A stretch of 62,576 nt of DNA, counting the filler, from Asterionella formosa (taxonomy: Eukaryota): the NCBI GenBank assembly GCA_002256025.1. It is 25 parts of 25 records of this genome, joined end to end, with 100 filler letters (N's around TTAATTAATTAA, not from the genome) between each part and the next. Parts side by side here need not be neighbours in the genome. Positions count along the whole stretch, not along the records: positions 57,690 to 60,083 come from NKIB01015319.1; 24 more parts are not named here. The stretch is one strand, 5' to 3'. Made by a program: the position numbers and the translations under genes. Under the pieces are notes generated by a model. It was not told the origin of the DNA, made no database searches, and saw nothing but the letters and a program-made list of their open reading frames with translations. Positions 22,621 through 61,743 of the stretch are shown here, one piece after another. How positions within the stretch are numbered: the stretch's first letter is position 1; each line of letters opens with the position of its first letter.

Positions 22621-24700
22621 TTTTACATGACCATCACTCTGGTAAGTACAACAAAGTTCACTTCTACATATTGATATCAAAAGACAAACAACAGGTACTG
22701 ATACATTCATTCTCATAACAGTTTCCATCTATATGACTATGTCCAGCCCTAGAAGGGCTGGATGCTCTTTAGGGAAGACGCCTAGAGGCATCTACCCTTT
22801 TCCCTGTCCCTGACCCTAACAGATTTGTCTATGGATCAGTACACACGTGAAATTGGTTAGTACCTGGGGTTTGGTACCAGGACATCTGTTTAGTCACATG
22901 CATGGAGTAATATTGGCCGTATTGGTACGTGGTACCTTGTTGTTCTATCCAGTAGCATGTCCAAAAAAATCTCCGAGGTAAAGTGTAGTCAAGACAGTAT
23001 TGGTCTTGAGAGCCTTGGCTCCGTCAACACCAATTGAATTCTCATAGAGATAAAGTGTAGTCAAGACAGTATTGACCTTGAGAGCCTCTGCAATGGCCTT
23101 GGCTCCGTCATCACCAATTGAATTACTACTGAGATTAAGTTCAGTCAAGACAGTATTGACCTTGAGAGCCTTTGCAATGGCCTTGGCTCCATCATTACCA
23201 ATTGAATTAGCTCGGAGATGAAGTTTAGTCAAGACAGTATTGACCTTGAGAGCCTCTGCAATGGCCTTGGCTCCGTCATCACCAAATGAATCAACTCTGC
23301 GACTAAGACCAAGTGTAACAATTTTAGTCAAACTTGAATCATTCGCTTTCAACCGCTTGACATATTTTTCCCATGTATCATCCCAGTTAGGCATTGTCAA
23401 TATAGTCTTGAATGTAATGGAAGTTGTCTATTGTGATTGACGAGCGACTTTTTTCTTGTTGTTGTCGTCCAATATTGCTACTGTCACTACTTCCAGGAGC
23501 AAGGGACAATCAAATCCTGATTCATCATCAGAATCGGACGACCATGACACTGAGTTGGATCCATGTAGTGACGAGTGAAAGCTATTTCTGACTTGAAGGA
23601 GGCAACCTCATTTATTAGACAAGACTAAGCTATGTTTGCATGGCTGGTCACCGTGATCTTGGTCTCGCTGCTGCTCAAGTGCTTGCATGCTTGATGGATT
23701 CTGGAAAGAACCTTTGTTGGGATCATTGAATCTAACTTATCACAAGAAAGGAACCTCGATTATCGAATGGCCTGATGTGAGAAGCGGCCTAACAAATCAT
23801 CGTCAATGACCACATTGAAACCACACAAATACGACTATTCATATGTAGTCTGCATACCGGTATTCGCCTGTGCTGTGTTGTACCTCTTCATCACCACGGG
23901 CATATGTTGTTCCCTACCGGTATTATAAAATTACGTGGTGTGAGGTAACAGGGTGGCGCCAGTCCCTGGTATCAGGTACAAGATACCCAGAACACCCATG
24001 GATCTACTGGTACGCCCAGGTACCAGTTGTACGTGGAGCACCGTCTGAAATAATATATACAAGGTATGTACTGCACTCCTTGCCATCATGAACAACAGCC
24101 GTGAGGAATGGTTGAGCTGGATGGGAGTTCCGGGAAAGTCCGAATACTATTGCGAACATTTGTCCACACATGCACACTGCTGTATGTAACATAAACCATA
24201 CAAAACTGTTAGGGTTGCAAATATACCGGTTGACTACGTACGTATCGGTACATCGGTACCATACAGGTAGACTCCCGGTAATAAATGTATACAACAAAGA
24301 TATGTGTACAAAGTAGCATACACAGTAGCCGGTATGTAGTTGAACTATACTACAATCACAAATCAAAATTGCATGCAGTTACTACTAATACTGCATGCAT
24401 GCATCCTCATAAGAATACTGATATTTACCAGGCACAGTACATGGGAGTCGACATCAAAAACAATGTGCCCACGGAATTGCAAAACCAAACCAAAAAGAAA
24501 TAGCGAATATTTCCACTCCACCAGGTCATTCAGGACGCACCCGCGAATGCGAATTATATATATATATATATTACATGCATAACATTATAATAATTTGTAA
24601 CATTTTTACATGACCATCACTCTGGTAAGTACAAAACAGTGCCCTTCTACATATTCATATCAAAAAACAAACAACCGGTACTTACACATTCATTCTCATA
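22621..24700. repeat. Diverged 97-bp direct repeat (22621-22717 and 24604-24700), probably transposon 3' region copies
   Basis: ttttacatgaccatcactctggtaagtacaa...cattcattctcata occurs twice. Confidence 0.8.
22945..23394 (-). CDS. RI-like (NLRC3-like) LRR protein with four 28-aa/84-bp repeats; the last repeat is broken, so it may be truncated or a pseudogene
   Basis: RLKANDSSLT cap, then DDGAKAIAEALKVNTVLTxLxLxxNSIG repeats; same DNA unit as 12575-12660. Confidence 0.8.
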   Translation of the reverse strand: MPNWDDTWEKYVKRLKANDSSLTKIVTLGLSRRVDSFGDDGAKAIAEALKVNTVLTKLHLRANSIGNDGAKAIAKALKVNTVLTELNLSSNSIGDDGAKAIAEALKVNTVLTTLYLYENSIGVDGAKALKTNTVLTTLYLGDFFGHATG

Positions 24701-25522: not shown

Positions 25523-27536
25523 TTATAAATACAGCAGGGAGTAGTAAATTTGTTGTTGTGGTGGTGTTGCCGGTGGAGGATGAAAATATGGCTGCTGATA
25601 GGAATAAACAACATTGTTTGGTGGGGGAGGGGGGCCGGGATGGTAGATTGCATGTTGTGCAGGAGGCGGCAGACCAGAACTGTATATGTGTTGAGGAGTT
25701 TGAAGCAGATGGTGGGAGTAGTAGTGGATGGGAGCTCCTGGAGGATGAGCATGAGGAGTTGGGTTGGTAGAGGAGGGCAACAAAACAACTTTACAATCAA
25801 CAATAGGATCGTCAATGGGAATGGAAATTTCAGCCGATTTCTTGACATCAGGAGGAACAACTGCAAGGTCGGAAGAATATTTCTCGGGAGTTTCATGCTG
25901 GTCCTCATTGTCTTCAAATTTTTTAAAAACTGCTAGCGTTGCTTGATGCTGCATTTCCTTTGATGGCAGCTGGTATCTGGCATTGATTTCAGCTGATCCA
26001 TGCCTGGATTTGTCGAGAATTATTTTTGTAGGTAAGGAAACACTAGAGTTGACAAGGGAAGAGATCATACTCTTCCTCCTCCCATGGGCAGTGCAACGAG
26101 CAGCATTATCCATGCCCGCAGCTGTTGCTAGGTCGACACATAGTCTTGTAGCATAGCCTTTACCAAAACAGTCTCACTTCTTGTGTCCTGCCTTGTATGT
26201 TAGCCCTAGCTTGCGTCGGTTCTTAGTGATGGATATACGAGGAGCCATGTAGAAAAAGACGCACATGAGTTAGTCCATAGTATGCACAACAAATCACCAG
26301 TACAAATTTGGCACCAGGCATAATGAATCACCGGTGTTTCCAAGGGATTACACACATAATTTACATACCTTGAGTTCCTTCTCAGGAGCGCGTCGCCGAA
26401 AAAACGGTTGGTTGCTAGTTACCATCTCGGGCGAACAGAGGTTATCCCGGTAGTGATGTATTAATTTCACTATGAATGTAGGGTTGCCTGTATCCTCGAT
26501 CATAGTTCGTTCCTGTAGACCTTGGTACTTCCGCTCATTATTTTGCAACGTCAGGGCATTATTTTTTTCGACTTCACTTGGATGTAGCACGACAGTTCGT
26601 AATCCGTCCATCAAACCAACTGTCACCTTATTGAATGTCAAGTCGCACATTTCTATCGACCCTCTGACACCAAACGCTTTGCCCATTTTCCATACCATGG
26701 ACTTGAGGCAATCATCATAATTAAGCTAAGGCTGCATTTGGAGTGTTCGTAGCTTCCTGTCCTCGTCTTGATCGAACTGTGATGCCATGGGCTTGTGGCC
26801 ATATTCCAATGGCCGGTGCTTGGCAGCAATTGCCATATTTTTTGAAAAGAATGCTTGAATCTCACCCTCACCATTGAAATCCTTCGACAGGGAATATGGT
26901 ATGCCTTGGGGGGAGAAGCATCGGAAGAGATCTTTCAGCTTGGTTTGGGCGGTGTTCGGTTGGTACATTGCCGTTGCAATGGCTTCGTCAGAAGCACTTT
27001 CGAGAATGAGGGGCGATTTTTTCTTGAAGAATTTGGTTGCAAACCAAAGTACAGCAGTGTTGTTGATTTCCTTGGTGGCGTTGCGTCTTAGCCCACGACA
27101 GATTAGACAGAATCGACGGATTGGTTGGTTGCCATTGTCAGGATCATTGTCGAAAGAAGTAAGCGAGCTCAAGGTTTCATTCTCGACAAGGGATTCAAAA
27201 AACCTTGATTCAATGATGGTAAGTGACTTGGTGTATTTGATTGTGTTATGCGACAGGTTTCTAATAGAATTTGTTTGTTTTGTTGACCCGAAAACATTAT
27301 TGCTGGATCGAATTGCATTGGCATAGTCTTCAGCAGTTGAGTGAGACATTGGAATCCGGGAGTCAGCACGATGAGCATGAGGAGCAATGATGGAAGCAGG
27401 TAACAAGTGCCTTGAATCGGAATCAGATGTGCTAGTAGTACTGTTGCAATCATCCTCAGAATCATGACAATCAACAGAGCTGGGTCTATCAATGTCAGAA
27501 TTGGGTGTTTCTACAACATTGGATGAGTTCACAACT
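25523..27536 (-). pseudogene. Crypton-like tyrosine recombinase (DUF3504-like), copy 1; intron 26222-26368; nonsense codons at 26726 and 26174
   Basis: Catalytic pattern R (FGVRGSIE), HxxR (TAHGRRK), H (SRHGS), Y (NARYQ); splicing joins APEKELK|NRRKLG in frame. Confidence 0.85.
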
Positions 27537-27643: not shown

Positions 27644-30044
27644 ATGACAACGGGAACTAGAAGCCGTCGTTTCTCTCAAAGAGCAGTGACAAATACTGCT
27701 AAGCGCAAAGTGCAAGATGATAACCGGCGTGCTGCATTGGCAATGTGTGCACTAGAAAGGAAATGCAAGACGATAACCGGCGTGCTGCATTGGCAATGTG
27801 TGCACTAGAAAGGAAAAAGAAGCTTGGGTATGTTGTTGATTGGTGTGTGCTTCCGCCCATGCTGGCTGACCGAATTGTCGATTTCATCCTAACATACTCT
27901 TCAATTCATTACATTCTTCAGCTTATTGGAACGGAATGAGGTTGTTGCAAATGCTGCAAGTATTCCCAAAGCAGCCATTGATTGGAACGAAGAAATAGAA
28001 AGGTGCGTTTGTTGTTGATTGTTGCATAATTTTGCTTCCATTTTGATTCATCTATCATTGATGATGCGATCACTCACAGTCGCATTGTTTCCTTTCCGGT
28101 CATTGTCAGCTTTAAAGAACCTTCTAAAAGCAATGTTTCTACAGTTGTGAACTCATCCAATGTTGTAGAAACATCCAATTCTGAGATTGATAGACCCAGC
28201 TCTGTTGATTGTCGTGAATCTGATAATTGCAACAGTACTACTAGCACATCTGATTCCGATTCAAGGTACTTGTTACCTGCTTCCATCATTGCTCCTCATG
28301 CTCATCGTGCTGATTCCCGGATTCCAATGTCTCACTCAACTGCTGAAGACTATGCCAATGCAATTCGATCCAGCAATAATGTTTTCGGATCAACAAAACA
28401 AACAAATTTTATTAGAAACCTGTCGCATAACACAATCAAATACACCAAGTCACTTACCATCATTGAATCAAGGTTTTTTGAATCCCTTGTCGAGAATGAA
28501 ACCTTGAGCTCGCTTGCTTCTTTCGACAATGATCCTGACAATGGCAACCAACCAATCCGTCGATTCTATCTAATCTGTCGTGGGCTAAGACGCAACGCCA
28601 CCAAAGACATCATCAACACTGCTGTACTTTGGTTTGCAACCAAATTCTTCAAGATAAAATCGCCCCTCATTCTCGAAAGTGCTTCTGACGAAGCCATTGC
28701 AACGGCAATGTACCAACCGAACACCGCCCAAACCAAGCTGAAAGACCTCTTCCGATGCTTCTCCCGCCAAGGCATACCATATTCCCTGTCGAAGGATTTC
28801 AATGGTGAGGGTGAGATTCAAGCATTCTTTAAAAAAAATATGGCAATTGCTGCCAAGCACCGGCCATTGGAATATGGCCACAAGCCCATGGCGTCACAGT
28901 TCGATCAAGACGAGGACAGGAAGCTACGAACACTCCAAATGTAGCCTTACCTTAATTATGATGATTGCCTCAAGTCCATGGTATGGAAAATGGGCAAAGC
29001 GTTTGGTGTCAGAGGGTCGATAGAAATGTGCGACTTGACATTCAATAAGGTGACAGTTGGTTTGATGGACGGATTACGAACTGACGTGCTACATGCAAGT
29101 GAAGTCGAAAAAATAATGCCCTGACGTTGCAAAATACTGAGCGGAAGTACCAAGGTCTACAGGAACGAACTATGATCGAGGATACAGGCAACCCTACATG
29201 CATAGTGAAATTAATACATCACTACCGGGATAACCTCTGTTCGCCCGAGATGGTAACTAGCAACCAACCGTTTCTTCGGTGACGCGCTCCTGAGAAGGAA
29301 CTCAAGGTATGTAAATTATGTGTGTAATCCCTTGTACACACCGGTGATTCATTATACCTGGTGCCAAATTTGTACTGGTGATTTGTTGTGCATACTATGG
29401 ACTAACTCATGTGCGTCTTTTTCTACATGGCTCCTCGTATATCTATCACTAAGAACCGACGCAAGCTAGGGCTAACATACGAGGCAGGACACAAGAAGGG
29501 AGACTGTTTTGGTAAAGGCTATGCTACAAGACTATGTGTCGACCTAGCAACAGCTGCAGGCATGGATAATGCTGCTCATTGCACTGCCCATGGGAGGAGG
29601 AAGAGTATAATCTCTTCCCTTGTCAACTCTTGTGTTTCCTTACCTACAAAAATAATTCTCGACAAATCCAGGCATGGATCAGCTGAAATCAATGCCAGAT
29701 ACCAGCTGCCATCAAAGGAAATGCAGCATCAAGCAAGGCTAGCAGTTTTTGAAAAATTTGAAGACATTGAGGACCAGCATAAAACTCCCGAGAAATATTC
29801 TTCTGACCTTGCAGTTGTTCCTCCTGATGTCAAGAAATCGGCTGAAATTTCCATTCCCAATGACGATCCTATTGTTGATTGTAAAGTTGTTTTGTTGCCC
29901 TCCTCTACCAACCCAAATCCTCATGCTCATCCTCCAGGAGCTCCCATCCACTACTACTCCCACCATCTGCTTCAAACTCCTCAACACATATACAGTTCTG
30001 GTCCGCCGCCTCCTGCACAACATGCAATCTACCATCCCGGCCCC
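27644..30044 (+). pseudogene. Crypton-like tyrosine recombinase, copy 2; introns 27828-27921, 28003-28079, 29307-29453
   Basis: ATG at 27644; GT-AG introns restore the frame. Lesions differ from copy 1: 53-bp duplication 27711-27816, stop at 28942, frameshift near 29110, stop near 29280. Confidence 0.85.
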
Positions 30045-32652: not shown

Positions 32653-33738
32653 CGCTGGAGTCGGTACAGCAACAGGAACTGGCGCTGGTGCCGACGTTGG
32701 CATAACAACAGGGGTCGGTGCAGGAGTTTTAGGTTTGAAACGATCACAGACGTAATTTCCGTTTTTGCAGACACAGGTCCTTGTACCGTTTTTCCCGTTT
32801 CTAGTTAGATCGTATAAGCATGTGCGGTTACCGGCACAGGGGATTACCTCGTTCCGTTTCGGGGGATTCGGAGGACAAGTGAAAGGATTGTTGCAGACAA
32901 ATGATGAGTCTTTGCAGACACAGGTTATTGTCGCGTTTAATCCGCGTCTGGTTATAGGGTATAAACACCTGAGGTCACCGTCACATGAGATTGTTTGGGT
33001 CTTTTTCGGACGGTTGGGAGGGCAAAGGTTTGTGATAGGACTTGAAGTTGGTCCGGAAGGAGCAGATGGAATAGGTGGTGCAACGGTAATGGGTACCACG
33101 GTTGGTGCGACAACCGGAACTGGTCCTGGAGTTGGAGCAACAACCGGAACTGGTGCTGGAGTTGGAGCAACAACCGGAACTGGTGCTGGAGTTGGAGCAA
33201 CAACCGGAACTGGTGCTGGAGTTGGAGCAACAACCGGAACTGGTGCTGGAGTTAGAGAAGAATACACTGGGCTCATAGCTGGACTGTCGACAGGACTTGG
33301 TGGAGGAGTCGAAATTCCTGGTGGTGAGGCAAGGAGCGGTGCTGGAGTTGGATCAACAACAGGAACTGGTGCTGGAGTTGGAACGGTAACAGGAGTTGGT
33401 GCTGGAACAATAGCAGGAGTTGGTGCAAGAGACCAAGTATCAGCGGGGCTCATAGCTGGACTGTCAACAGGAGTTGGTGGAGGAGTCGAAATTCCTTGTG
33501 GTGAGACTAGGAGTGGTGCTGGAGTTGGAACCATACCTGGAACTGGCGCTGGAGTTGGAAACATATCGGGAGTTGGTGCAGGCGTGGGAACATCAGCCGG
33601 AGTGGGTGCCGAGGTCAAAGGCACAACGGGAGCAGAAGTTGTCATAACAACGGGAATCGGCCAAGGACTAGCCTCTGCCAGGGCACCGCTGGTGACAAGG
33701 CAGAGCCCCACGGCGATTTCGGTGATGCAAAACTTCAT
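32653..33738 (-). CDS. Secreted Pro/Thr/Val-rich (mucin/extensin-like) protein with two 6-Cys modules, 3'-partial
   Basis: Signal peptide MKFCITEIAVGLCLVTSGALA; PVPVVAPTPA repeats (30-bp tandem ~33105-33252); CP..P.....C....C.Y.........C.C.....C twice. Confidence 0.85.
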
Positions 33739-35159: not shown

Positions 35160-35286
35160 CCACCTTGGATCCCTACAAGATCCACCACCTTGGATCCCTA
35201 CAAGATCCACCACCTTGGATCCCTACAAGATCCACCACCTTGGATCCCTACAAGATCCACCACCTTGGATCCCTACAAGATCCACC
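35160..35286. repeat. 25-bp minisatellite, at least 5 exact copies (runs off the contig)
   Basis: Unit ccaccttggatccctacaagatcca with an internal tggatc/gatcca hairpin; a degenerate copy lies near 35327. Confidence 0.95.
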
Positions 35287-36072
35287 CTTCTTGACCTTTC
35301 ACACAGTTTGTCACTTGAGTTCTACACAACCTTGGATCCTTCTACAATCTGTAAAATTCTGGAAATTTCTAGTTTTCATTACCTTCCATTTAAGACTCAA
35401 TCTCTTATATATATCACTACATCATCAAGTGATATACTGACTCAATGGAAGATGTATGCATTGTGAATCATTGTAGTACTTACACACCAGGCAACATTGA
35501 CTTTCCATCACCACACAATCGAAGACCGAAATAAGAAGGGAAAAGCAGAACCCAATCTTGACCTACATCGTTATGTAGCGTAAATGGTCTGGTTTCTGCA
35601 ATCATGCGCATCGCTGTAGTAGCCTGACACCAGTAGCAGTATTTCCGCCACAGTCATTCCTCTCCGCTGCCCACCAAACAAGCAACCCTGATCATTCCAT
35701 TCTGAGCAAGCGTGATCGCCACGCTGCTCCAGAACTATTGACTCTCTCTAGCTGAGTATTCGTCATGTAGCTTCTGATACGAACTCGTAGTAGAATTGTA
35801 GCAAAGCGCATTAGTACAAGAAAAGCATTGCTTGGCAGCAATATTGACATCATTGTCAACGACTATACAAATCAACAAAAATACGATCAACAACGGCACA
35901 ATACCACATCTTCAATGAGTAGTCATTGATAAATGCATTGGTTCTTATGTAGATATGTACAATTGAAACAAAACGACAGTGCGTAACGACAAACAACGAT
36001 GGAAACGATCAAAACAAACCACGGAAGCAATCAAATCGGAAAGTCGATAAATACGATCTACAATCCACATTC

Positions 36073-37566: not shown

Positions 37567-38399
37567 NNNNNNNNNNNNNNNNNNNNNNNNNNNNNNNNNN
37601 NNNNNNNNNNTTAATTAATTAANNNNNNNNNNNNNNNNNNNNNNNNNNNNNNNNNNNNNNNNNNNNTCAACAACATTGGATACCCGAAACTTACTTATTC
37701 AATAATTTACTGACAAGTTACTATTACAGACTTATGCATCAGTTGCATTGATTTGTGGTAAGTGAAGCAAGAGGATACGATGGAATTGCGTGTCGTTGTT
37801 TCAATGTAACATGACTACTTGCTAACAAATCATTCCTTCTCATTGTTTCTGTAACTGCATTGGTTGCTGCAATGTCAATTGAATCCTCGACTCAAATGAA
37901 AGAACTCTGCAATACAGTTGAATGGTGAGTGTGTTCTTGTTGTGTACCTAAATGCTAGTATGGCTTGTCAGCTCACGCATTGTTGTTGACAACAGGCAGG
38001 GACAATGAGGTCCGGAATGAACTGTGTGTTGCTTTCTGCTGTTGCTAGTTCTTTCATATACATTACTGACACACTGTTGTTATGAAAATCTCTGCAGGTC
38101 AATGAAGAAGCAAGTCATTTCAAGGACAAGAAGGAAGCCAGTGTGTGATGCATTCATGTTGCAACTTTGTGCAATAATGCCTCTTCAAGAATGAATGATT
38201 TCTTCATTCAGAATGCATGGCTTATGTTTGTCTTGCATTGTCCTTACAGACTTCTCATAATGCCTGCCTTCTCAAGACTGAAGATGCCATTCTGAAAGAA
38301 CTGCTTTGTTTGATTGCATATCGAGATTTGCTTCCCATGTAATGTGAAATACCGGTTGTTGAATTAGTAATCAACATTATTTGATAGTACTTTTAAAAT

Positions 38400-39075
38400 A
38401 CGTAAAAAAATTTAATAAATTACGTGAACCATATTATAGAATTACGTGAACAAAAATTTAAGGCAATGTGAACTGAATTACAGAATTAATTGAAGTATTT
38501 CAAATAATTATGTGAAGTATTTCATATAATTATGTGAAGGTGATCACGTAATATTGTGATGATCAGGAATGCATGCATGATACTCTGATCAAATAATTAA
38601 CGTGATGTATTCAGATAATATATAGATATATTCAAGTAAGCATTTTGATGTATTCAACTAATTCATGTGATCCATTCAAAATCAACTAGGCTTATTTACG
38701 TGATGGTCACTTCACGTAATACGCGGCTTAGATGGGTGATGATTGTTACCACTACTGATTTGTCAATAACTTCATCAATATTGGAGAAATCAATACCTAA
38801 GAACGACTCATCTCATTGGAAGATAGTACCGAATAAGATGGTATTCCGTTGATTCACAATGGATCAATGCTACTCATCATTTACATGTCACAGCCGGGAT
38901 TTTTTCACCTACACCCTACATGGTGATGATTATTACCACTACTGACTTGTCAATAACTTCATCAATATTGGAGCAATCCATAACACTATTCGAATTTGGT
39001 TATGATCAACCCAAACACAACCTCCAATTTACATGTCACAACCCGGATTTTTTAATCTATACCCTACATGGTGCT
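38400..39075. repeat. Degenerate ~22-bp array (attacgtga/attatgtga) followed by nested 50-bp direct repeats
   Basis: Periodic units 38400-38720 ending cacgtaatacgcggc|tta; repeats 38735/38925 and 38878/39028. Confidence 0.6.
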
Positions 39076-39224
39076 GATTGTTCCCAATTGTAACTTTGTG
39101 TATCATCTATCTCATTTCATATTTAAACATCTGCTAATGCTTTTGTGATTTGTTCCTATTATATATTGATCTATCTCAATTCATATTTTAGCATCTACTA
39201 ATCTTTTTGTTAATTGTCTATATC

Positions 39225-40072
39225 TTATATTGATCTATTGATTCGAAAGTGTTCACTTGGGGGTAACGTCTCAGGAGGTAATAATCTGCATTCACGATGG
39301 AACTGTGCGTCTAGAAAGAAGATCTGGACTAGATTCCGCTTTCTAGCAGCTGTTGTTATTGAATACCAATGTTCACTTGGGGGAGAGCTCTCCGTGTTGA
39401 TACAAAGGTTGTCCAAATACTTTGCTGCTTCGTTCTTTAACCACAGCTGCTGAGCCGTGAGAGTTTCTCCAGTTGCACCTAAGAAATTTGTCCTTCCTCG
39501 CAGATAGATAGGGCATTCTGAACATAAGCGTTGGGCATAACCAATGCGATATATTATCTTGTTTTTGACGTCATTCCATCGGTCAATCCAACCATCTGTT
39601 TTGGGCAACCGAATTGCTCGAGCCGAGGATGCCAAACTGTAGGAAACCAAACCTAATACTGTTGCAGTTGTCGGCTTAGACCTACCATGCAAGGATCGCA
39701 TATCCAAGTCAAGCTTGGGAAGAGCATTCCATACAGGCGCTTCTCTATGCCACCTACAGGAATGTGTCATCATCGCTTTGGCGACGCCGGCTTTGAAAGG
39801 AAGCTGTAGGTCTGCGGCAGCGGACAGAAAGTTTAACTGCACCTGACAAACAGGACACAGTGCAGGTTCAAACAACTGTTGTGTTGGTCCAACTGTGGCT
39901 TTTGATTCATGAGATAATACCGCTTCTGTTAATGTTTGAAGTTCATCCTGACACTGAGGCTGAAAGTTAGACATAGCACCCATTAACACACCCATCATCT
40001 GCGCCATATCAGATCGTATTGCTTTCAACTCTTCCCGCAGCACTGGAACACCCTCCTCCTCCTCCTCCTCCT
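39225..40072 (-). CDS. Hypothetical protein, 5'-partial (poly-Glu at contig end)
   Basis: Open frame of >280 codons with a CPVC motif; no family recognised. Confidence 0.55.
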
Positions 40073-40172
40073 NNNNNNNNNNNNNNNNNNNNNNNNNNNN
40101 NNNNNNNNNNNNNNNNTTAATTAATTAANNNNNNNNNNNNNNNNNNNNNNNNNNNNNNNNNNNNNNNNNNNN

Positions 40173-41020
40173 AGGAGGAGGAGGAGGAGGAGGGTGTTCC
40201 AGTGCTGCGGGAAGAGTTGAAAGCAATACGATCTGATATGGCGCAGATGATGGGTGTGTTAATGGGTGCTATGTCTAACTTTCAGCCTCAGTGTCAGGAT
40301 GAACTTCAAACATTAACAGAAGCGGTATTATCTCATGAATCAAAAGCCACAGTTGGACCAACACAACAGTTGTTTGAACCTGCACTGTGTCCTGTTTGTC
40401 AGGTGCAGTTAAACTTTCTGTCCGCTGCCGCAGACCTACAGCTTCCTTTCAAAGCCGGCGTCGCCAAAGCGATGATGACACATTCCTGTAGGTGGCATAG
40501 AGAAGCGCCTGTATGGAATGCTCTTCCCAAGCTTGACTTGGATATGCGATCCTTGCATGGTAGGTCTAAGCCGACAACTGCAACAGTATTAGGTTTGGTT
40601 TCCTACAGTTTGGCATCCTCGGCTCGAGCAATTCGGTTGCCCAAAACAGATGGTTGGATTGACCGATGGAATGACGTCAAAAACAAGATAATATATCGCA
40701 TTGGTTATGCCCAACGCTTATGTTCAGAATGCCCTATCTATCTGCGAGGAAGGACAAATTTCTTAGGTGCAACTGGAGAAACTCTCACGGCTCAGCAGCT
40801 GTGGTTAAAGAACGAAGCAGCAAAGTATTTGGACAACCTTTGTATCAACACGGAGAGCTCTCCCCCAAGTGAACATTGGTATTCAATAACAACAGCTGCT
40901 AGAAAGCGGAATCTAGTCCAGATCTTCTTTCTAGACGCACAGTTCCATCGTGAATGCAGATTATTACCTCCTGAGACGTTACCCCCAAGTGAACACTTTC
41001 GAATCAATAGATCAATATAA
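40173..41020 (+). CDS. Same hypothetical protein, allelic or duplicate contig
   Basis: Contig 40173-42578 is the reverse complement of 37667-40072 apart from a few SNPs. Confidence 0.55.
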
Positions 41021-42678
41021 GATATAGACAATTAACAAAAAGATTAGTAGATGCTAAAATATGAATTGAGATAGATCAATATATAATAGGAACAAATCAC
41101 AAAAGCATTAGCAGATGTTTAAATATGAAATGAGATAGATGATACACAAAGTTACAATTGGGAACAATCAGCACCATGTAGGGTATAGATTAAAAAATCC
41201 GGGTTGTGACATGTAAATTGGAGGTTGTGTTTGGGTTGATCATAACCAAATTCGAATAGTGTTATGGATTGCTCCAATATTGATGAAGTTATTGACAAGT
41301 CAGTAGTGGTAATAATCATCACCATGTAGGGTGTAGGTGAAAAAATCCCGGCTGTGACATGTAAATGATGAGTAGCATTGATCCATTGTGAATCAACGGA
41401 ATACCATCTTATTCGGTACTATCTTCCAATGAGATGAGTCGTTCTTAGGTATTGATTTCTCCAATATTGATGAAGTTATTGACAAATCAGTAGTGGTAAC
41501 AATCATCACCCATCTAAGCCGCGTATTACGTGAAGTGACCATCACGTAAATAAGCCTAGTTGATTTTGAATGGATCACATGAATTAGTTGAATACATCAA
41601 AATGCTTACTTGAATATATCTATATATTATCTGAATACATCACGTTAATTATTTGATCAGAGTATCATGCATGCATTCCTGATCATCACTATATTACGTG
41701 ATCACCTTCACATAATTATATGAAATACTTCACATAATTATTTGAAATACTTCAATTAATTCTGTAATTCAGTTCACATTGCCTTAAATTTTTGTTCACG
41801 TAATTCTATAATATGGTTCACGTAATTTATTAAATTTTTTTACGTATTTTAAAAGTACTATCAAATAATGTTGATTACTAATTCAACAACCGGTATTTCA
41901 CATTACATGGGAAACAAATCTCGATATGCAATCAAACGAAGCAGTTCTTTCAGAATGGCATCTTCAGTCTTGAGAAGGCAGGCATTATGAGAAGTCTGTA
42001 AGGACAATGCAAGACAAACATAAGCCATGCATTCTGAATGAAAAAATCATTCATTCTTGAAGAGGCATTATTGCACGAAGTTGCAACATGAATGCATCAC
42101 ACACTGGCTTCCTTCTTGTCCTTGAAATGACTTGCTTCTTCATTGACCTGCAGAGATTTTCATAACAACAGTGTGTCAGTAATGTATATGATAGAACTAG
42201 CAACAGCAGAAAGCAACACACAGTTCATTCCGGACCTCATTGTCCCTGCCTGTTGTCAACAACAATGCGTGAGCTGACAAGCCATACTAGCATTTAGGTA
42301 CACAACAAGAACACACTCACCATTCAACTGTATTGCAGAGTTCTTTCATTTGAGTCGAGGATTCAATTGACATTGCAGCAACCAATGCAGTTACAGAAAC
42401 AATGAGAAGGAATGATTTGTTAGCAAGTAGTCATGTTACATTGAAACAACAACACGCAATTCCATCGTATCCTCTTGCTTCACTTACCACAAATCAATGC
42501 AACTGATGCATAAGTCTGTAATAGTAACTTGTCAGTAAATTATTGAATAAGTAAGTTTCGGGTATCCAATGTTGTTGANNNNNNNNNNNNNNNNNNNNNN
42601 NNNNNNNNNNNNNNNNNNNNNNTTAATTAATTAANNNNNNNNNNNNNNNNNNNNNNNNNNNNNNNNNNNNNNNNNNNN

Positions 42679-57139: not shown

Positions 57140-57689
57140 ACCACTACTGCATCGTCCACTTTGACACCAGATACATGTAATGCAGATAAACACAGCAGTG
57201 AGAGAAACAATAATCTAGCCGATAGACCGGAACAGCATGAGACTCAACAAACACAACCTTCCGGTGAGAAGGGGGGGAACAAATACAAACGAAAAAAGTG
57301 TTCCATTGAGACCATGAAACTTGCTCCAGCACCACAAGCATGTGGTGGGCATCAATCTTGATAAGATGACTTGCCAGTTGGCGCTATTGGCGATCGCGCA
57401 AAATAAATGGTTCATGTGGTGGCTGGACGCTTTAAACTGGGAACGGAAGCACTGGACGATAAGACTAGGAGAAAAGAAGAGCAGAGTAGAAGGAGAGTGA
57501 GAAAGCGAATAAGAAAGTTATGGATTATAAAGCAACATTGAACGAGGTGCAAGCGATCAGAGCACTCAACAAACGGGCACACAAATGGANNNNNNNNNNN
57601 NNNNNNNNNNNNNNNNNNNNNNNNNNNNNNNNNTTAATTAATTAANNNNNNNNNNNNNNNNNNNNNNNNNNNNNNNNNNNNNNNNNNNN

Positions 57690-58686
57690 TCAAATTCATT
57701 TTAAGGAGCTGGCTTTTATCTGCATTGCAAGTCAATCCAAACCACTCACAATAATTGTTGATACTAAATAGCCATGAAGACCTGCTATTGAATTGGTCAT
57801 TATAACCTTGGTTGAACCCCTGGTTTCCAGAGGTTGCATAATAAAGGGTCACCAAGGCATAGATTTGGAGTAATTCAGTATCCATGATTTCTGCAGTACC
57901 TTGCTCACTTTCTAACCAGATCATTGCCTGCTGCTGTGGGGAGCCGTCAGTCAAAAGTGCAGCCCCATTATCAAACGAGTTCTCAGATAAAAAGAGGAAC
58001 AAAACAGAAGTTGGACTTGGTGATGGAGGAACTGATGTTGGATTCGATGTGAAAGGAGCCAATGTCTCATTGCCTGACTTGTTCCGAGTAAGCACAACTG
58101 CAACTACAGCAGCAACAATCGCAACAAGACTTGTGAGTCCACAAGATACCATGATGTTAATCATGCTACGGCGACGTTGGGCCTTCGCTTCAGCTTCAGC
58201 ATCGACAATTGCTACCCTTGCAGGAATATCAGGGGCAGATTCATCAACTAGAATGGCACTCACGGCCTCATGTTGGCCTCCCTCTATGCTATGCATGGCG
58301 AGTGGTTGCTGACTTATTCCCTGGGACTCCTCCAAAGACCATTCATCGTCGGCACTTGACCTTGCATGACCACTCCCTCCCACTGCGACTGCTCCAGGAA
58401 GTGTTTGTGGAGGTGCTCCTGGTTCTTCATGCTCCACCACCGCAGGAGAATCCTCCTGCAAAATGTTAGGCGCTGGTCCAGCCCTGTGGTTAACATATTC
58501 CTTTCCATTAATGTCTTCTCCATGTGAAGATTCAGAGTCCCGAGCTCGGTCTTCCTCCTTTGCTTCGTCAGCAAAAGGTACCCTGCTGGCATAATCGCTC
58601 TTCTGTTTTGCAGTGCCAGAAGGTTTCACTGACCTTACGTGATCATATTGGCTGCCTTTCTTGACTTCCTTGCTGTCTTCTTTCAT
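57690..58686 (-). CDS. Diatom-type LRR receptor-like membrane protein, 5' part
   Basis: PGAVAVGG motif, TM (LVAIVAAVVAVVL), Pro/Ser/Thr stalk, SPQQQAMIWL, YALVTLYYAT, CEWFGLTC (LRR N-cap). Confidence 0.85.
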
Positions 58687-58890
58687 ACTGCTGCTTGTTG
58701 TATATTGTGTTTAGTGCGCAGAATAATCACAACAGTAAGGCAAGGACAAGATTGTGTGGAGAAGAAAAGAACAAAGCATCAAACGAACAAGCAAAACTTC
58801 GCAAGCAATATTCTCAAGGGAGGTCTGCAAAAAGAAGATTCGTTTATCGTGGAAAATACTATGTAGTGCAGTGTGGGCGCGTGGATGAAC

Positions 58891-58921
58891 GTTAGGGTTA
58901 GGGTTAGGGTTAGGGTTGGGG
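58891..58921 (+). repeat. Internal telomeric tract, (TTAGGG)4
   Basis: gttagggttagggttagggttagggttgggg. Confidence 0.95.
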
Positions 58922-60016
58922 TATGTGTGAGGGCTACAATGACTATTATCCAAGCGACGATGGGGTGACTACTTAAGTTGCCAAAAAGTAATGAGACTAA
59001 TGTTACTTTTCGCCTGAAGGGGCTTCATCAGTTGGCTTGAATCTGTAGTCTTGTTTTATTTAAGTCATGGTGTGTGCGGGGGGTTGGGCAGGCGTGGTTG
59101 GCTGTGAAATTACACCAGGAGTGGAGGCAGTATTTATAGTAGGAGGGGAAGGTAGCATGGACCTCGTAGAGGTTGATGTATCCCGTGTAGTATCAAGTTG
59201 TATCGTAAGTAAGTGAGTACTTACTGAAGTGGTGTCCGATCTCAATTTCCGTGGTGATGTATAATTCCCAATGTTTTTAGGGCGATTATAAGCGATTATC
59301 AACCGTTGGATGGTACATTGTTTTCCGGAGAAGTTCCGTAGGGTGGTAGGAATTGGTTCTTTACCCGGGGAGAGTATAGTGTCTCTGAAAATTTGTTGAA
59401 TGTGAGATGAGGGGGGATTATTCGGATGAAATGGCATGTGGAGGAACACGCATTGTTCTGTATGTGTGTCTGTTCTCTGAGTGGCCGTGTTGGTTTTGTT
59501 CGATTTGTTAACATATAGCTGTTTGATGTATGTGTTAAAAATGGGTAGAAGGGTTTTATCCGAATAACCTCGGAGTTGTAGGCGTTTGTAAAAAGAGTGG
59601 ATTGCAGTTTTGAAATGTGTGTCAATTGTTGTTAGATGGTAGATCCGGTGAATCATTCCAGCAATAAGACCGCGAAGGACACCAGGAGGGTGTGCACTAT
59701 GTTGTGGTATATAGAGATAGGGATTCAAGGATTTTTCAAAAAGTGTGGTATCAATAGAGCGGGTGTGTTTATTGATAGAGATTGTGAGATCCAGGAAAGT
59801 TGTAGATAACTGTCGTGGTTCTGCATTCCATTTAAGTATGCCAAAGGTATTCATCGAGTTGAGAAACGAGTTGTGTGTTTTGTTATCCTCGATATTGGAA
59901 GTTGATGTAGGGACCCAGATTATGAAGCAATCATCAATATACCTTCTGTAGAAGGATATTTGTGGAAACATTGGGATGGTTTGTATCTCGTGAATTGCAA
60001 AGTAGAGGGTGGCATA
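58922..60016 (-). mobile_element. Endonuclease-less Penelope-like retroelement, 5'-truncated, telomere-associated (RT ORF ends 59060)
   Basis: YATLYFAIHE, YRRYIDDCFIIW, FLDLTISI, YLYIPQHSAHP, LQLRGY, FHP, IIAYNRPKNI; no GIY-YIG motif before the stop. Confidence 0.92.
58967..59050 (-). ncRNA. Type I hammerhead ribozyme in the 3' end of the Penelope-like element
   Basis: gactac-agattcaa-gccaa CTGATGA a gcc-ccttca-ggc GAAA agtaa-cattagtctca-ttact TT|ttggc-aacttaa-gtagtc: core boxes plus stems I (with internal loop), II and III all pair. Confidence 0.85.
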
Positions 60017-60083
60017 TAGGGTTAGGGTTAGGGTTAGGGTTAGGGTTAGGGTTAGGGTTAGGGTTAGGGTTAGGGTTAGGGTT
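60017..60083 (+). repeat. Telomere (TTAGGG)n, chromosome end
   Basis: About 11 perfect repeats running to the contig end, G-rich strand 5'->3' outward. Confidence 0.95.
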
Positions 60084-60249
60084 NNNNNNNNNNNNNNNNN
60101 NNNNNNNNNNNNNNNNNNNNNNNNNNNTTAATTAATTAANNNNNNNNNNNNNNNNNNNNNNNNNNNNNNNNNNNNNNNNNNNNATATCATCAATCATCAT
60201 TCATGAAGCTCAATCGGAATCCACTGGTTGTAGAGTGAAATTTGTGCAC

Positions 60250-61743
60250 TCACCAACTTGAACCTTAGTTTGTGGCAGCCCCTTCAAGGGATAGTTTCTA
60301 CTCATCAGGACAATCAGTTCGACGGTATCACCGAGCCTTGAAGGGGCTGAGCACACGTTAACAAGATAAATGCAATGAAATTTGAGCGGCATGCTGATCG
60401 ACATTTTGCTAGCAATCTATACATTTGTGCTAACCACTAAGCCATTCTTCGAGATGGCTTTTCGACAGAACAGAATGGATGTTTCAAGATGCATCTCACA
60501 CCACAAGCAAGCAAGCAAAATAGAGAGACTTACTCACCAAGAAGGCTTTGTACCATCTTCCATTTGCAATTGAGAAGCAAGACAGATGTAGTCGGAATTG
60601 TTGCGTATGCTTGGGAAAAAAGTTTTGCGAAATTACGCACAAACAAACAAAAAACCCGCAGAGCAAGGCTGGGAACTTTGATCTATAGTTGTTTGTTGAA
60701 TCCACAGCTGACGAATTTTGGTGTTGTCCCATTGAATAGAATCTCACACAGCAACAGAAGCTATATTACAGCCACCTGACCAGCTCAACCTGCAAGAAGG
60801 ACTTGTTTCACAAATCAAATCGTTGAATATGATTAACAGAGAAGATGTGCAAAATGGTAATGATGCAGCAGAACATGCATGCCAGCAGGAAAAGAAAGCA
60901 AACAGAAGCAGCCACAAGCATAAATCAACACACACAAAGGAATGACTGCAGGACTGCATTTTGCTGTTTGAAACATTACCTTGTCTAGGACCACCGCTTT
61001 TTGAGCACATGCTGGAAATCGAGGAACAAAACAATGAGCAGAAATTAAATCAACGGTTTTTGAATTTTCACAGAAGGCAGCTACCACAGGCCATCAGAGA
61101 GACTGAAAAGGAAGCTGGAAGCTACAATGTAGCTAGCTAGCAGAACTGAAAACAATGGTGACATGGTACAAGCGCAACAGCAATGCGCCGCTTCCAACAA
61201 CCAGACAGAACTTGTTGGCAAGATACTTGGAGACTTGTTGCTGCTTTCACTTTTAGTATCCCAACAATGAAAAGATGCGTTTCCATCATTATTCAAATAT
61301 GAAAACTAAACACGATTGATTCGTACACCAGTACCGCTAGTTGGTCTCTTCCTATTACAACATAGGTTGCTTGATGTCAGCAACTTGAAGTTAGCAGTTA
61401 GCGATTTAAAGTCAGTAGTCAGCAAATGAAGTCAGCAGTCAGCGAATATTTCAAATTTTCAGCAAATCAAGTGAGCACCAGTTAGCAACAAGAAGTCCGC
61501 AGTCAGCAAGTTGAAGTTGGTAGTCAGCGATTCTGCTGTGAAAGGTGGTAGCGCTTTTCTGTTTCAAACTTTGTAACGGTTAAAGGTAATATGAATACCC
61601 GGTACACGGAAATATTTTGAGATTTTTCATCATTTCGGAATTGGTGAGCTGGTCAGACTTCAAATGTTGTAGATTGAAACCGCTACGTTGAATTTTTAGT
61701 TCACAGTGCGCGCAATTCGCTGGTTACCGGACCTTCAAACTGG
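60250..61743 (+). mobile_element. Decayed pogo-like (Tc1/mariner superfamily) transposon, right part ending ...AAACTGG|TA
   Basis: SLWQ, STEQNGCFKM, KTDVVGIVAYAWEKSFAK..TNK, GW..L in broken frames; internal agtcagc repeats 61370-61530; candidate terminus at 61743. Confidence 0.6.

Follow-up and report, generated by a model that had tools for sequence, protein, structure and literature searches.

A predicted type I hammerhead ribozyme at the 3' end of a truncated, telomere-flanked Penelope-like element copy in Asterionella formosa

A sequence resembling a hammerhead ribozyme (HHR) lies, in an assembly of Asterionella formosa, between a truncated reverse transcriptase (RT) ORF and a short run of telomere-type repeats, and it raises two questions: whether it is a genuine hammerhead, and what such a ribozyme would do for a retroelement that attaches to chromosome ends. 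The window (the whole stretch of DNA analysed, 62,576 nucleotides) is composed of approximately 25 short scaffolds with linkers of the form N44-TTAATTAATTAA-N44 in between. The scaffold concerned is laid out as follows:

57690 to 60083: scaffold carrying the HHR, 2.4 kb, with an N linker from 60084.
60016 to 60083, minus strand: terminal (CCCTAA)n tract, reaching the scaffold end.
59060 to 60016, minus strand: 5'-truncated RT ORF, 318 codons plus stop, with homology to full-length RTs from 60016 to approximately 59210.
58922 to 58984, minus strand: 63-nt tail 3' of the predicted cut, running up to the telomere-type repeats and contiguous with the HHR in the DNA copy.
58892 to 58921, minus strand: internal telomere-type tract, identified by repeat matches as CCCCAA plus (CCCTAA)4 on the element strand (TTAGGG on the plus strand).
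57690 to 58891, minus strand: non-element sequence proximal to the internal repeat, with a host-like ORF that has one hydrophobic span.

Read along the element strand, the order is (CCCTAA)n, 318-codon ORF, HHR, tail, CCCCAA(CCCTAA)4 and 1.2 kb of unrelated sequence. Telomere-type repeat matches in the window numbered 15, against 0.12 expected. The ORF in 57690 to 58891 was searched for RT similarity and for a Pfam match, and neither was found. The host element of the HHR is a 1.1-kb, 5'-truncated copy of an endonuclease-deficient (EN-minus) Penelope-like element (PLE), positioned at the scaffold end and flanked on both sides by TTAGGG repeats; the scaffold is just 2.4 kb long, and its repeat-bearing end is likely a true chromosome terminus.

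The window ORF starts just before the RT motif YIDD, and both DKN and the motifs of the RT N-terminus are missing from it. Its relatives number 105, with lengths of 560-1066 aa (best E=2.8e-62; identity 31-47%), and the consensus obtained with 39 relatives aligned includes DKNLGPA, FTADAxSMYTNID, QLxGTAMGTPPAP and YxRYIDDxFGIW. Judged by the DKNLGPA and RT motifs that its relatives carry, it is probably a fragment of a PLE-type RT. In Pfam results for the window ORF (P0001) and four full-length relatives (629-658 aa), no match to RVT_1 and no GIY-YIG or endonuclease domain was found. The nearest protein-atlas clusters were eukaryotic, with Rotifera the commonest recorded phylum, and relatives with two ORFs were present, two ORFs being the usual trait of Athena elements (PMC13159263). 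RT homology ends near 59210-59255; the copy keeps the C-terminal ~40% of the RT, and the last ~50 codons of the ORF are an unconserved S/T/P-rich run-on. Because this run-on ends the ORF, the stop codon (TAA, 59062-59060) lies close to the HHR in the window copy, with 9 nt separating it from outer helix I, against 108-858 nt (median 296) between stop and HHR in relatives. An earlier note on this DNA had put the HHR 10 nt after the RT stop, which is somewhat misleading, since the stop closes the run-on.

The copy lies at the scaffold end, is 5'-truncated, carries reverse-complement telomere repeats on its 3' side and has an HHR 45 nt from those repeats, all in keeping with an EN-minus PLE. It is a dead stub, and as the promoter-proximal part and most of the RT are missing from it, no statement is made on function at the window locus.

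The HHR was read on the minus strand with the following parts:

58967 to 59050, minus strand: complete type I HHR including outer helix I and an 8/7-nt internal loop, from direct reading and flank duplex energy.
58980 to 59036, minus strand: core HHR (inner helix I, CUGAUGA plus extra A, helix II, GAAA, helix III and U17), from a strict descriptor and the models R1 and R2 described below (R2 match 58981-59035).
59050 to 59045 with 58972 to 58967, minus strand: outer helix I, 6 bp, GACUAC paired with GUAGUC.
59044 to 59037 with 58979 to 58973, minus strand: helix I internal loop, AGAUUCAA opposite AACUUAA.
59036 to 59032 with 58984 to 58980, minus strand: inner helix I, 5 bp, GCCAA paired with UUGGC.
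59031 to 59025, minus strand: CUGAUGA core, with the extra A at 59024.
59023 to 59021 with 59014 to 59012, minus strand: helix II, 3 bp, GCC paired with GGC, with a 6-nt loop CCUUCA.
59011 to 59008, minus strand: GAAA.
59008 to 59003 with 58991 to 58986, minus strand: helix III, 6 bp including A15.1-U16.1, AAGUAA paired with UUACUU, with an 11-nt loop.
58984 to 58985, minus strand: predicted cleavage, 3' of U17 (58985) and 5' of U1.1 (58984), by hammerhead numbering.

The full set of core nucleotides (C3 U4 G5 A6 N7 G8 A9, G12 A13 A14, and an H17 that is not G) is present, three helices meet at the junction, and the closing pairs G10.1-C11.1 and A15.1-U16.1 are formed. Topology is that of type I: helix I is open-ended, helices II and III are capped by loops, and the order is I(5')-core-II-GAAA-III-H17-I(3'). 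The flank duplex was calculated at -9.1 kcal/mol against -2.6 for shuffled flanks, with 1 of 100 shuffles as good, and 45 nt (58966-58922) separate outer helix I from the first telomere-type repeat at 58921. The earlier note had described a complete type I HHR on the minus strand at 58967..59050, cleaving between 58985 and 58984, about 45 nt from the telomeric junction and in the 3' region of a telomere-associated PLE. Its coordinates and helices proved right to the base, U17 falls at 58985, the count to the junction is 45 nt, and RT ORF homology together with the flanking telomere repeats bears out the setting. The long stem III that it had singled out has 6 bp and matches the monomer-cleaving HHRs of fungal and protist PLEs described in PMC4209133.

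Significance of the motif was assessed with a strict HHR descriptor scanned over the window, with 200 first-order Markov simulations as the null. One site was found in the window, against a simulation mean of 0.03 and at least one site in 6 of the 200 simulations. Two models were built from related sequences. R1 was seeded with three gapless related sequences of equal length, and scored the window HHR at 22.9 bits (E=0.0028); MAFFT alignments of descriptor matches (A2, A3 and A4) were structurally inconsistent and were left out of model building. R2, a covariance model of 40 relatives from other samples (alignment A7) from which the window sequence was excluded, scored it at 33.2 bits (E=9.5e-07) in a search of the whole window run with filters off, where the second-best site reached 11.5 bits (E=0.94). 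The window HHR is not a chance resemblance.

Rfam release 15, which the earlier note had named as a check, returned no hammerhead match over the whole window at gathering scores or over 58800-59200 at E up to 10. The miss reflects a limit of the curated models and is not a defining property of HHRs; those models do not extend to this PLE subfamily. Two weak Rfam matches in 58800-59200, to an lncRNA region and a snoRNA, were dismissed as noise. Other candidates in the window were also set aside: relaxed-descriptor matches at 28678-28826 (plus strand) and an inverted duplicate, with loops of 42 and 68 nt, had no R2 support, and a CUGAUGAG-UA-GAAAC sequence at approximately 60300-60313 (minus strand) had neither helix II nor an R2 match. 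Unconstrained folding of the window HHR gave a minimum free energy (MFE) of -16.9 kcal/mol, against -14.8 for the HHR fold (z = -1.4). In the unconstrained MFE structure the core pairs with loop 3 instead, which is favoured by 2.1 kcal/mol; with the core held unpaired, the HHR fold is the MFE. Helix II has just 3 bp.

Conservation was examined in 80 loci encoding RT relatives, obtained from a metagenome scan. The strict descriptor found 12 further HHRs in these loci, on the coding strand each time, and the relaxed descriptor found 36 coding-strand matches in 35 loci against 2 on the opposite strand. R2, at E up to 1, gave 47 matches in 46 loci, 47 of 47 on the coding strand. Where the sequence continues for 400 nt or more past the RT stop, 46 of 53 loci had an R2 HHR; where it is shorter, 0 of 27 did.

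In alignment A7 (40 relatives), 98.2% of cells were paired, against 63.3% after shuffling and 23-46% with the partners slid. Both-side changes occurred in 8 of 10 pairs, the covariation score was 0.865 (0.179 shuffled), and double-change cells numbered 125 against 36.6 shuffled, with 0 of 500 shuffles as high. A7 was fitted to the model and pairing is favoured in it for that reason; strand asymmetry and match positions are independent of the fit. The pairs G10.1-C11.1 and A15.1-U16.1 were invariant among 39 distinct relatives; G5, A6, G8, A9, A13 and A14 were found in 40 of 40 relatives, and G12 and C3 in 39 each. Position 17 was U in 37 relatives and C in 3, and an extra nucleotide followed A9 in 29 of 40 (A in 25). 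Beyond inner helix I, flank duplexes averaged -6.9 kcal/mol against -4.1 for shuffled sequences, and at 18 of 45 sites the real duplex was better than 95 or more of 100 shuffles; on these calculated energies, relatives repeatedly have an outer helix I on the far side of an internal loop or bulge.

These comparisons alter part of what had been proposed earlier. Covariation, suggested as a check, was found across the 40 related metagenome loci, and the bulged, extended stem I, thought at first to mark a monomer-competent ribozyme, recurs in relatives and not only in the window copy. The extra A and the UUU cleavage site, by contrast, had been called non-optimal variants that could lower activity. 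An extra unpaired nucleotide is given as a hallmark of PLE hammerheads in PMC4209133, and by the counts among relatives both the extra A and U17 are read as the family consensus, that is, as selected states and not defects.

The wider setting of the HHR was taken from relatives with longer flanks. Several loci have the order RT C-terminus, HHR, ORF1 of ~400 codons, RT N-terminus; in locus L014, RT C-terminus and HHR are followed by a 422-codon ORF1 beginning 85 nt past the HHR and by an RT N-terminus with DKNLGPA, while locus L042 has two truncated RT pieces with an HHR after each. As read from this order, relatives are head-to-tail units of two ORFs with the HHR at the junction. Of 23 loci in which 450 nt or more follow the HHR, 17 have an ATG-initiated ORF of at least 100 codons that begins 64-169 nt (median 112) past it.

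The tail of the window copy contains a further candidate element, marked by its recurrence in relatives:

58946 to 58951, minus strand: GGAUAA box in the tail, 30 nt past the HHR.

Of 42 loci, 22 have an exact GGATAA in the first 80 nt past the HHR, most often at +22 to +35, and 1 has it in the 80 nt before the HHR. Among the papers listed from the Penelope-like and hammerhead literature, no GGAUAA/GGATAA box was found, which is weak evidence of its absence from print. Two features are new here: the box approximately 30 nt past the HHR and, in relatives, the distance of 64-169 nt from the HHR to the ORF1 of the next unit downstream. Enrichment of CCCTA after the tail was not seen in relatives (12/40 downstream, 8/40 upstream), tandem telomere-type repeats were absent from the 80 loci with the patterns tried, and a C-rich tail end was rejected as unsupported (CCCC in 20 downstream, 15 upstream).

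Parts of the stretch were present in 20 of 24 listed sequencing runs. Of these, 5 were RNA runs, and the samples were lake, river, freshwater and algae metagenomes from 10 studies. Four runs were compared with the stretch; all are contigs, from which RNA ends, strand and level are not readable. RNA contigs bridge 58985/58984 in three runs (X1, 58924-60015; X9, 58924-59564; X12, 58936-58995), although contigs cannot show ends. Across 58922-59134 the four runs held zero variant letters, against 15 variable places in the ORF. In a DNA run, the 5' break of another copy is joined through TTAGGG-type letters to the tail start. Two side observations were made in these data: two X2 contigs diverge at 58998, within loop 3 (agreement 0.67), and depth over 58922-58958 is above that of the ORF (2614 against 300 in X1), a single figure per contig that is not evidence.

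The reading that we favour, with a probability of roughly 0.55, is that the HHR is near-universal in one clade of EN-minus, telomere-attaching PLEs, where it sits between the RT gene and the unit end, self-cleaves after U17 as a monomer and sets the 5' end of the next unit. Reverse transcription would begin with the 3' end of the element, on a chromosome end made of TTAGGG repeats, and halt inside the RT gene, and telomere repeats would then be added onto the truncated copy. Given a start at the 3' end and 5' truncation, all such copies therefore retain a 3' HHR, functional or not. In transcripts of active units, the RNA would fold as a monomer, with its 6-bp helix III and bulged helix I, and cut itself after U17, whereupon the 63-nt tail and all downstream RNA would become a new 5'-OH RNA. 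The HHR and tail are contiguous in every DNA copy, and the template RNA was therefore uncut at the last HHR, or cut and rejoined. An uncut or rejoined last HHR in turn favours the view that cleavage forms the 5' end of the downstream unit and removes upstream RNA. Cleavage would accordingly trim upstream or read-through RNA and place the next unit's 5' end 64-169 nt before ORF1, and cleavage would not be what makes the 3' end for pairing with the telomere overhang. Monomeric cleavage in vivo, and a cut serving 5'-end formation, are inferred. In fungal and protist EN-minus PLEs the HHRs have a large helix III and that of Serpula cleaves as a monomer (PMC4209133), EN-deficient PLEs are found as 5'-truncated chromosome-end copies between short telomere tracts, and Athena and Coprina have reverse-complement telomeric repeats with an adjacent HHR (both PMC8557442, PMC6431247).

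Several points count against this reading. Two identical HHRs in a more-than-unit RNA would need to be cut unequally. In the EN-plus PLE PAc, mutation of the HHR core left in vitro insertion unchanged, and the RNA-seq data had zero reads with an end at the HHR site (PMC11167929). Against cleavage in particular stand the RNA contigs over the site, the 3-bp helix II, the rival MFE fold and the Rfam miss.

In an alternative that we consider unlikely, the HHR is mainly a 3'-terminal fold that the RT recognises, presenting telomere-complementary repeats to the G-rich overhang, with cleavage incidental or suppressed. In the DNA copy the HHR, tail and CCCUAA-type repeats follow one another without a break, which means an uncut template at that place; RNA contigs cross the cleavage site; the PAc mutants were without effect on in vitro insertion (PMC11167929); and a GGAUAA box at a fixed downstream distance suggests a larger RNA element around the HHR. 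A mere scaffold, however, would not require the full set of catalytic nucleotides, yet G5, A6, G8, A9, A13 and A14 do not vary among the 40 relatives, the repeats begin 45 nt past the fold and do not directly adjoin it, and related fungal PLE HHRs are described as cleaving in vitro (PMC4209133).

The tail that cleavage would release may itself be a functional RNA module, an idea built on analogy that we hold rather improbable. Within head-to-tail units it could serve as an uncapped leader of ORF1, acting in translation or circularisation. In a more-than-unit or circular RNA it could act at the 3' end as an RT entry or boundary signal, beside the telomere-complementary template, with the HHR switching RNA between mRNA and template roles. 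Telomerase RNA has template-boundary elements and telomerase RT is the closest relative of PLE RTs, and it is because of this analogy that a boundary role is proposed.

A circular intermediate would reconcile cutting with contiguity in another way, which we think distinctly doubtful. Two successive HHR cuts followed by host ligation would yield a unit-length circular RNA, and RT primed by the overhang would run round the circle, restoring continuity of HHR and tail and giving head-to-tail arrays. Relatives are indeed arranged head to tail with an HHR at each junction, L042 has two RT pieces each with an HHR, HHR cleavage leaves ligatable ends, and this route has been proposed for PLEs (PMC4209133). 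Contig data, though, cannot separate a circular from a tandem DNA junction, the tail of the window copy adjoins telomere repeats and not another unit, and CCCTA does not follow the tail in relatives more than it precedes the HHR.

Less probable still is that the HHR is chiefly a 5'-leader device, whose cut would give an uncapped leader and cap-independent translation of ORF1. The ORFs of at least 100 codons that begin 64-169 nt past the HHR in 17 of 23 relatives would suit such a role, HDV-like ribozymes of non-LTR elements have been reported in it, and in a fungal virus (a chrysovirus) cleavage by a 5' UTR HHR is required for cap-independent translation, the authors drawing an analogy to retrotransposon ribozymes (PMC13725137). 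The window copy, by contrast, has no downstream ORF1, and the effects reported for a ribozyme alone are modest, 'usually below 1%' in plants (PMC13725137). Finally, that the motif resembles a hammerhead by chance, or is a decayed relic that serves no selected function in the family, as the lack of an Rfam match, a folding z of only -1.4 and the dead stub might suggest, is highly improbable and is contradicted for the family by the R2 match with the window excluded from the model (E=9.5e-07), an HHR on the coding strand in 46 of 53 relatives with 0 on the opposite strand at E up to 1, strong covariation, and 58922-59134 being free of variant letters in four runs where the ORF has 15 variable places.

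The favoured reading, cleavage as a monomer that sets the 5' end of the next unit, concerns an HHR that passes the tests applied at the level of sequence for type I, in an EN-deficient PLE host, and of a kind already described. The locus provides a clean HHR example from a freshwater eukaryote, and the comparison set supplies a covariance model for an HHR subfamily undetected by Rfam. The conserved extra A and U17, the template uncut at the last HHR and the tail box together narrow the possible roles of the HHR and define sites for mutation. For annotation, the HHR motif and tail mark the 3' ends of this PLE family at chromosome ends.

Hammerheads have been known in PLEs since 2014 (Cervera & de la Pena 2014, PMC4209133). 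Like the fungal and protist EN-minus PLE HHRs described there, the window HHR is of type I, has a large helix III, is terminal in a telomeric PLE and has an unpaired nucleotide between A9 and G10.1. Those HHRs are said in the same text to have 'no recognizable tertiary interactions' between helices I and II, whereas an outer helix I past a loop or bulge recurs here, a difference drawn from the published wording. With Athena and Terminon 3' ends (Arkhipova et al. 2017 via PMC6431247; PMC8557442) the locus shares an HHR near the 3' end, reverse-complement repeats downstream, 5'-truncated copies with short telomere tracts and relatives with two ORFs. It differs from them, as they are presented in those sources, in its repeats, CCCTAA here against ACACCC or TCACCC there, and in a 45-nt spacer with the GGAUAA box where the repeats of Athena and Terminon follow immediately downstream. 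The hammerhead families of Rfam have the catalytic core and three-way junction in common with the window HHR, yet their models do not match it. Viroid HHRs, some of which are reported with an extra nucleotide after A9 (De la Pena & Flores 2001, cited in PMC4209133), are type III ribozymes of circular RNA replicons, whereas this is a type I ribozyme of a retroelement. Lastly, although both the ribozyme class and the retroelement class differ, the window HHR may be likened to the HDV-like ribozymes at the 5' end of R2 and other non-LTR retrotransposons, which, as cited in PMC4209133 and PMC13725137, free the retroelement RNA from its co-transcript just upstream of the ORF.

In relatives of the element, ORF1 (~400 codons) precedes the reverse transcriptase (RT), and such two-ORF units stand head to tail in six of the metagenome loci encoding relatives of the window's RT ORF (L014, L019, L003, L006, L028 and L059), with a hammerhead ribozyme (HHR) at the unit junction. 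At locus L042 each of the two truncated RT pieces has an HHR after it, and in L040 the tail 3' of the HHR is present as two repeats.

Core positions vary in some of the 40 related HHRs aligned in A7. U4 is replaced by C in four rows (L002, L038, L047 and L054; core CCGAnGA) and by A in one (L080; CAGAAGA), C3 by U in one (L006; UUGAUGA), and G12 by A in one (L042; GCAAAAC). These seven loci may hold decayed copies or tolerated variants. For the helix I flanks, the 18 nt 5' of inner helix I were compared at 45 sites, and a CAUAA/CACAA-like string was found by eye to abut the 5' side of this helix at roughly 20 of them, its place in the window HHR being taken by UUCAA. One possibility is that the string forms a conserved strand of the internal loop and takes part in a contact between helix I and loop II.

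Downstream of the cleavage site, the tail contains a conserved short motif:

58946-58951, minus strand: GGAUAA box, in the tail downstream of the HHR cleavage site

Among 42 relatives the box was located downstream of the HHR in 22, versus upstream in 1, lying mostly 22-35 nt 3' of the HHR in the related loci; as judged by eye, in many of them it is contained in a small GGAU..AUCC hairpin. Two DNA contigs from run X2 agree with the window from the tail to 58998, within loop 3 of the HHR, and beyond this position turn into unrelated sequence; a chimeric element is one possible explanation, a branch in the assembly another.

In the window (1-62576), ~25 short scaffolds, each roughly 2.4 kb long, are strung together with linkers between them. 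Features on opposite sides of one linker are without physical linkage. Features of the wider window are as follows:

about every 2.5 kb (e.g. 57590-57689, 60084-60183): linker N44-TTAATTAATTAA-N44, between scaffolds
23012-23307: tandem repeat, 84-nt unit, on another scaffold than the HHR
33031-33650: tandem repeat, 30-nt unit, likewise on another scaffold
35160-35311: tandem repeat, 25-nt unit, likewise on another scaffold
57690-58686, minus strand: host-like ORF, adjoining the internal telomere tract
60290-60356, minus strand: CUGAUGAG-UA-GAAAC within an inverted repeat, on the scaffold next to that of the HHR

Adjacent scaffolds 37567-40122 and 40123-42678 are mutual reverse complements (100% across 2556 nt), as are segments 25631-27454 and 28222-30044 of neighbouring scaffolds (98% across ~1.8 kb); both pairs are probably duplicate or allelic assembly contigs.

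The CUGAUGAG-UA-GAAAC string at 60290-60356 lacks helix II and was matched neither by the descriptor nor by R2, the covariance model built from the 40 related HHRs. Its inverted repeat has arms of 12-13 nt (GCCCCUUCAAGG / CCCUUGAAGGGGC), one of which is similar to the string that forms stem-loop II in the real HHR.

The host-like ORF is without a match in Pfam, and comparison with the 80 related loci showed no similarity. The ORF encodes one hydrophobic span and a C-terminal ..YCEWFGLTCN.. stretch, which may resemble an LRR N-terminal cap.
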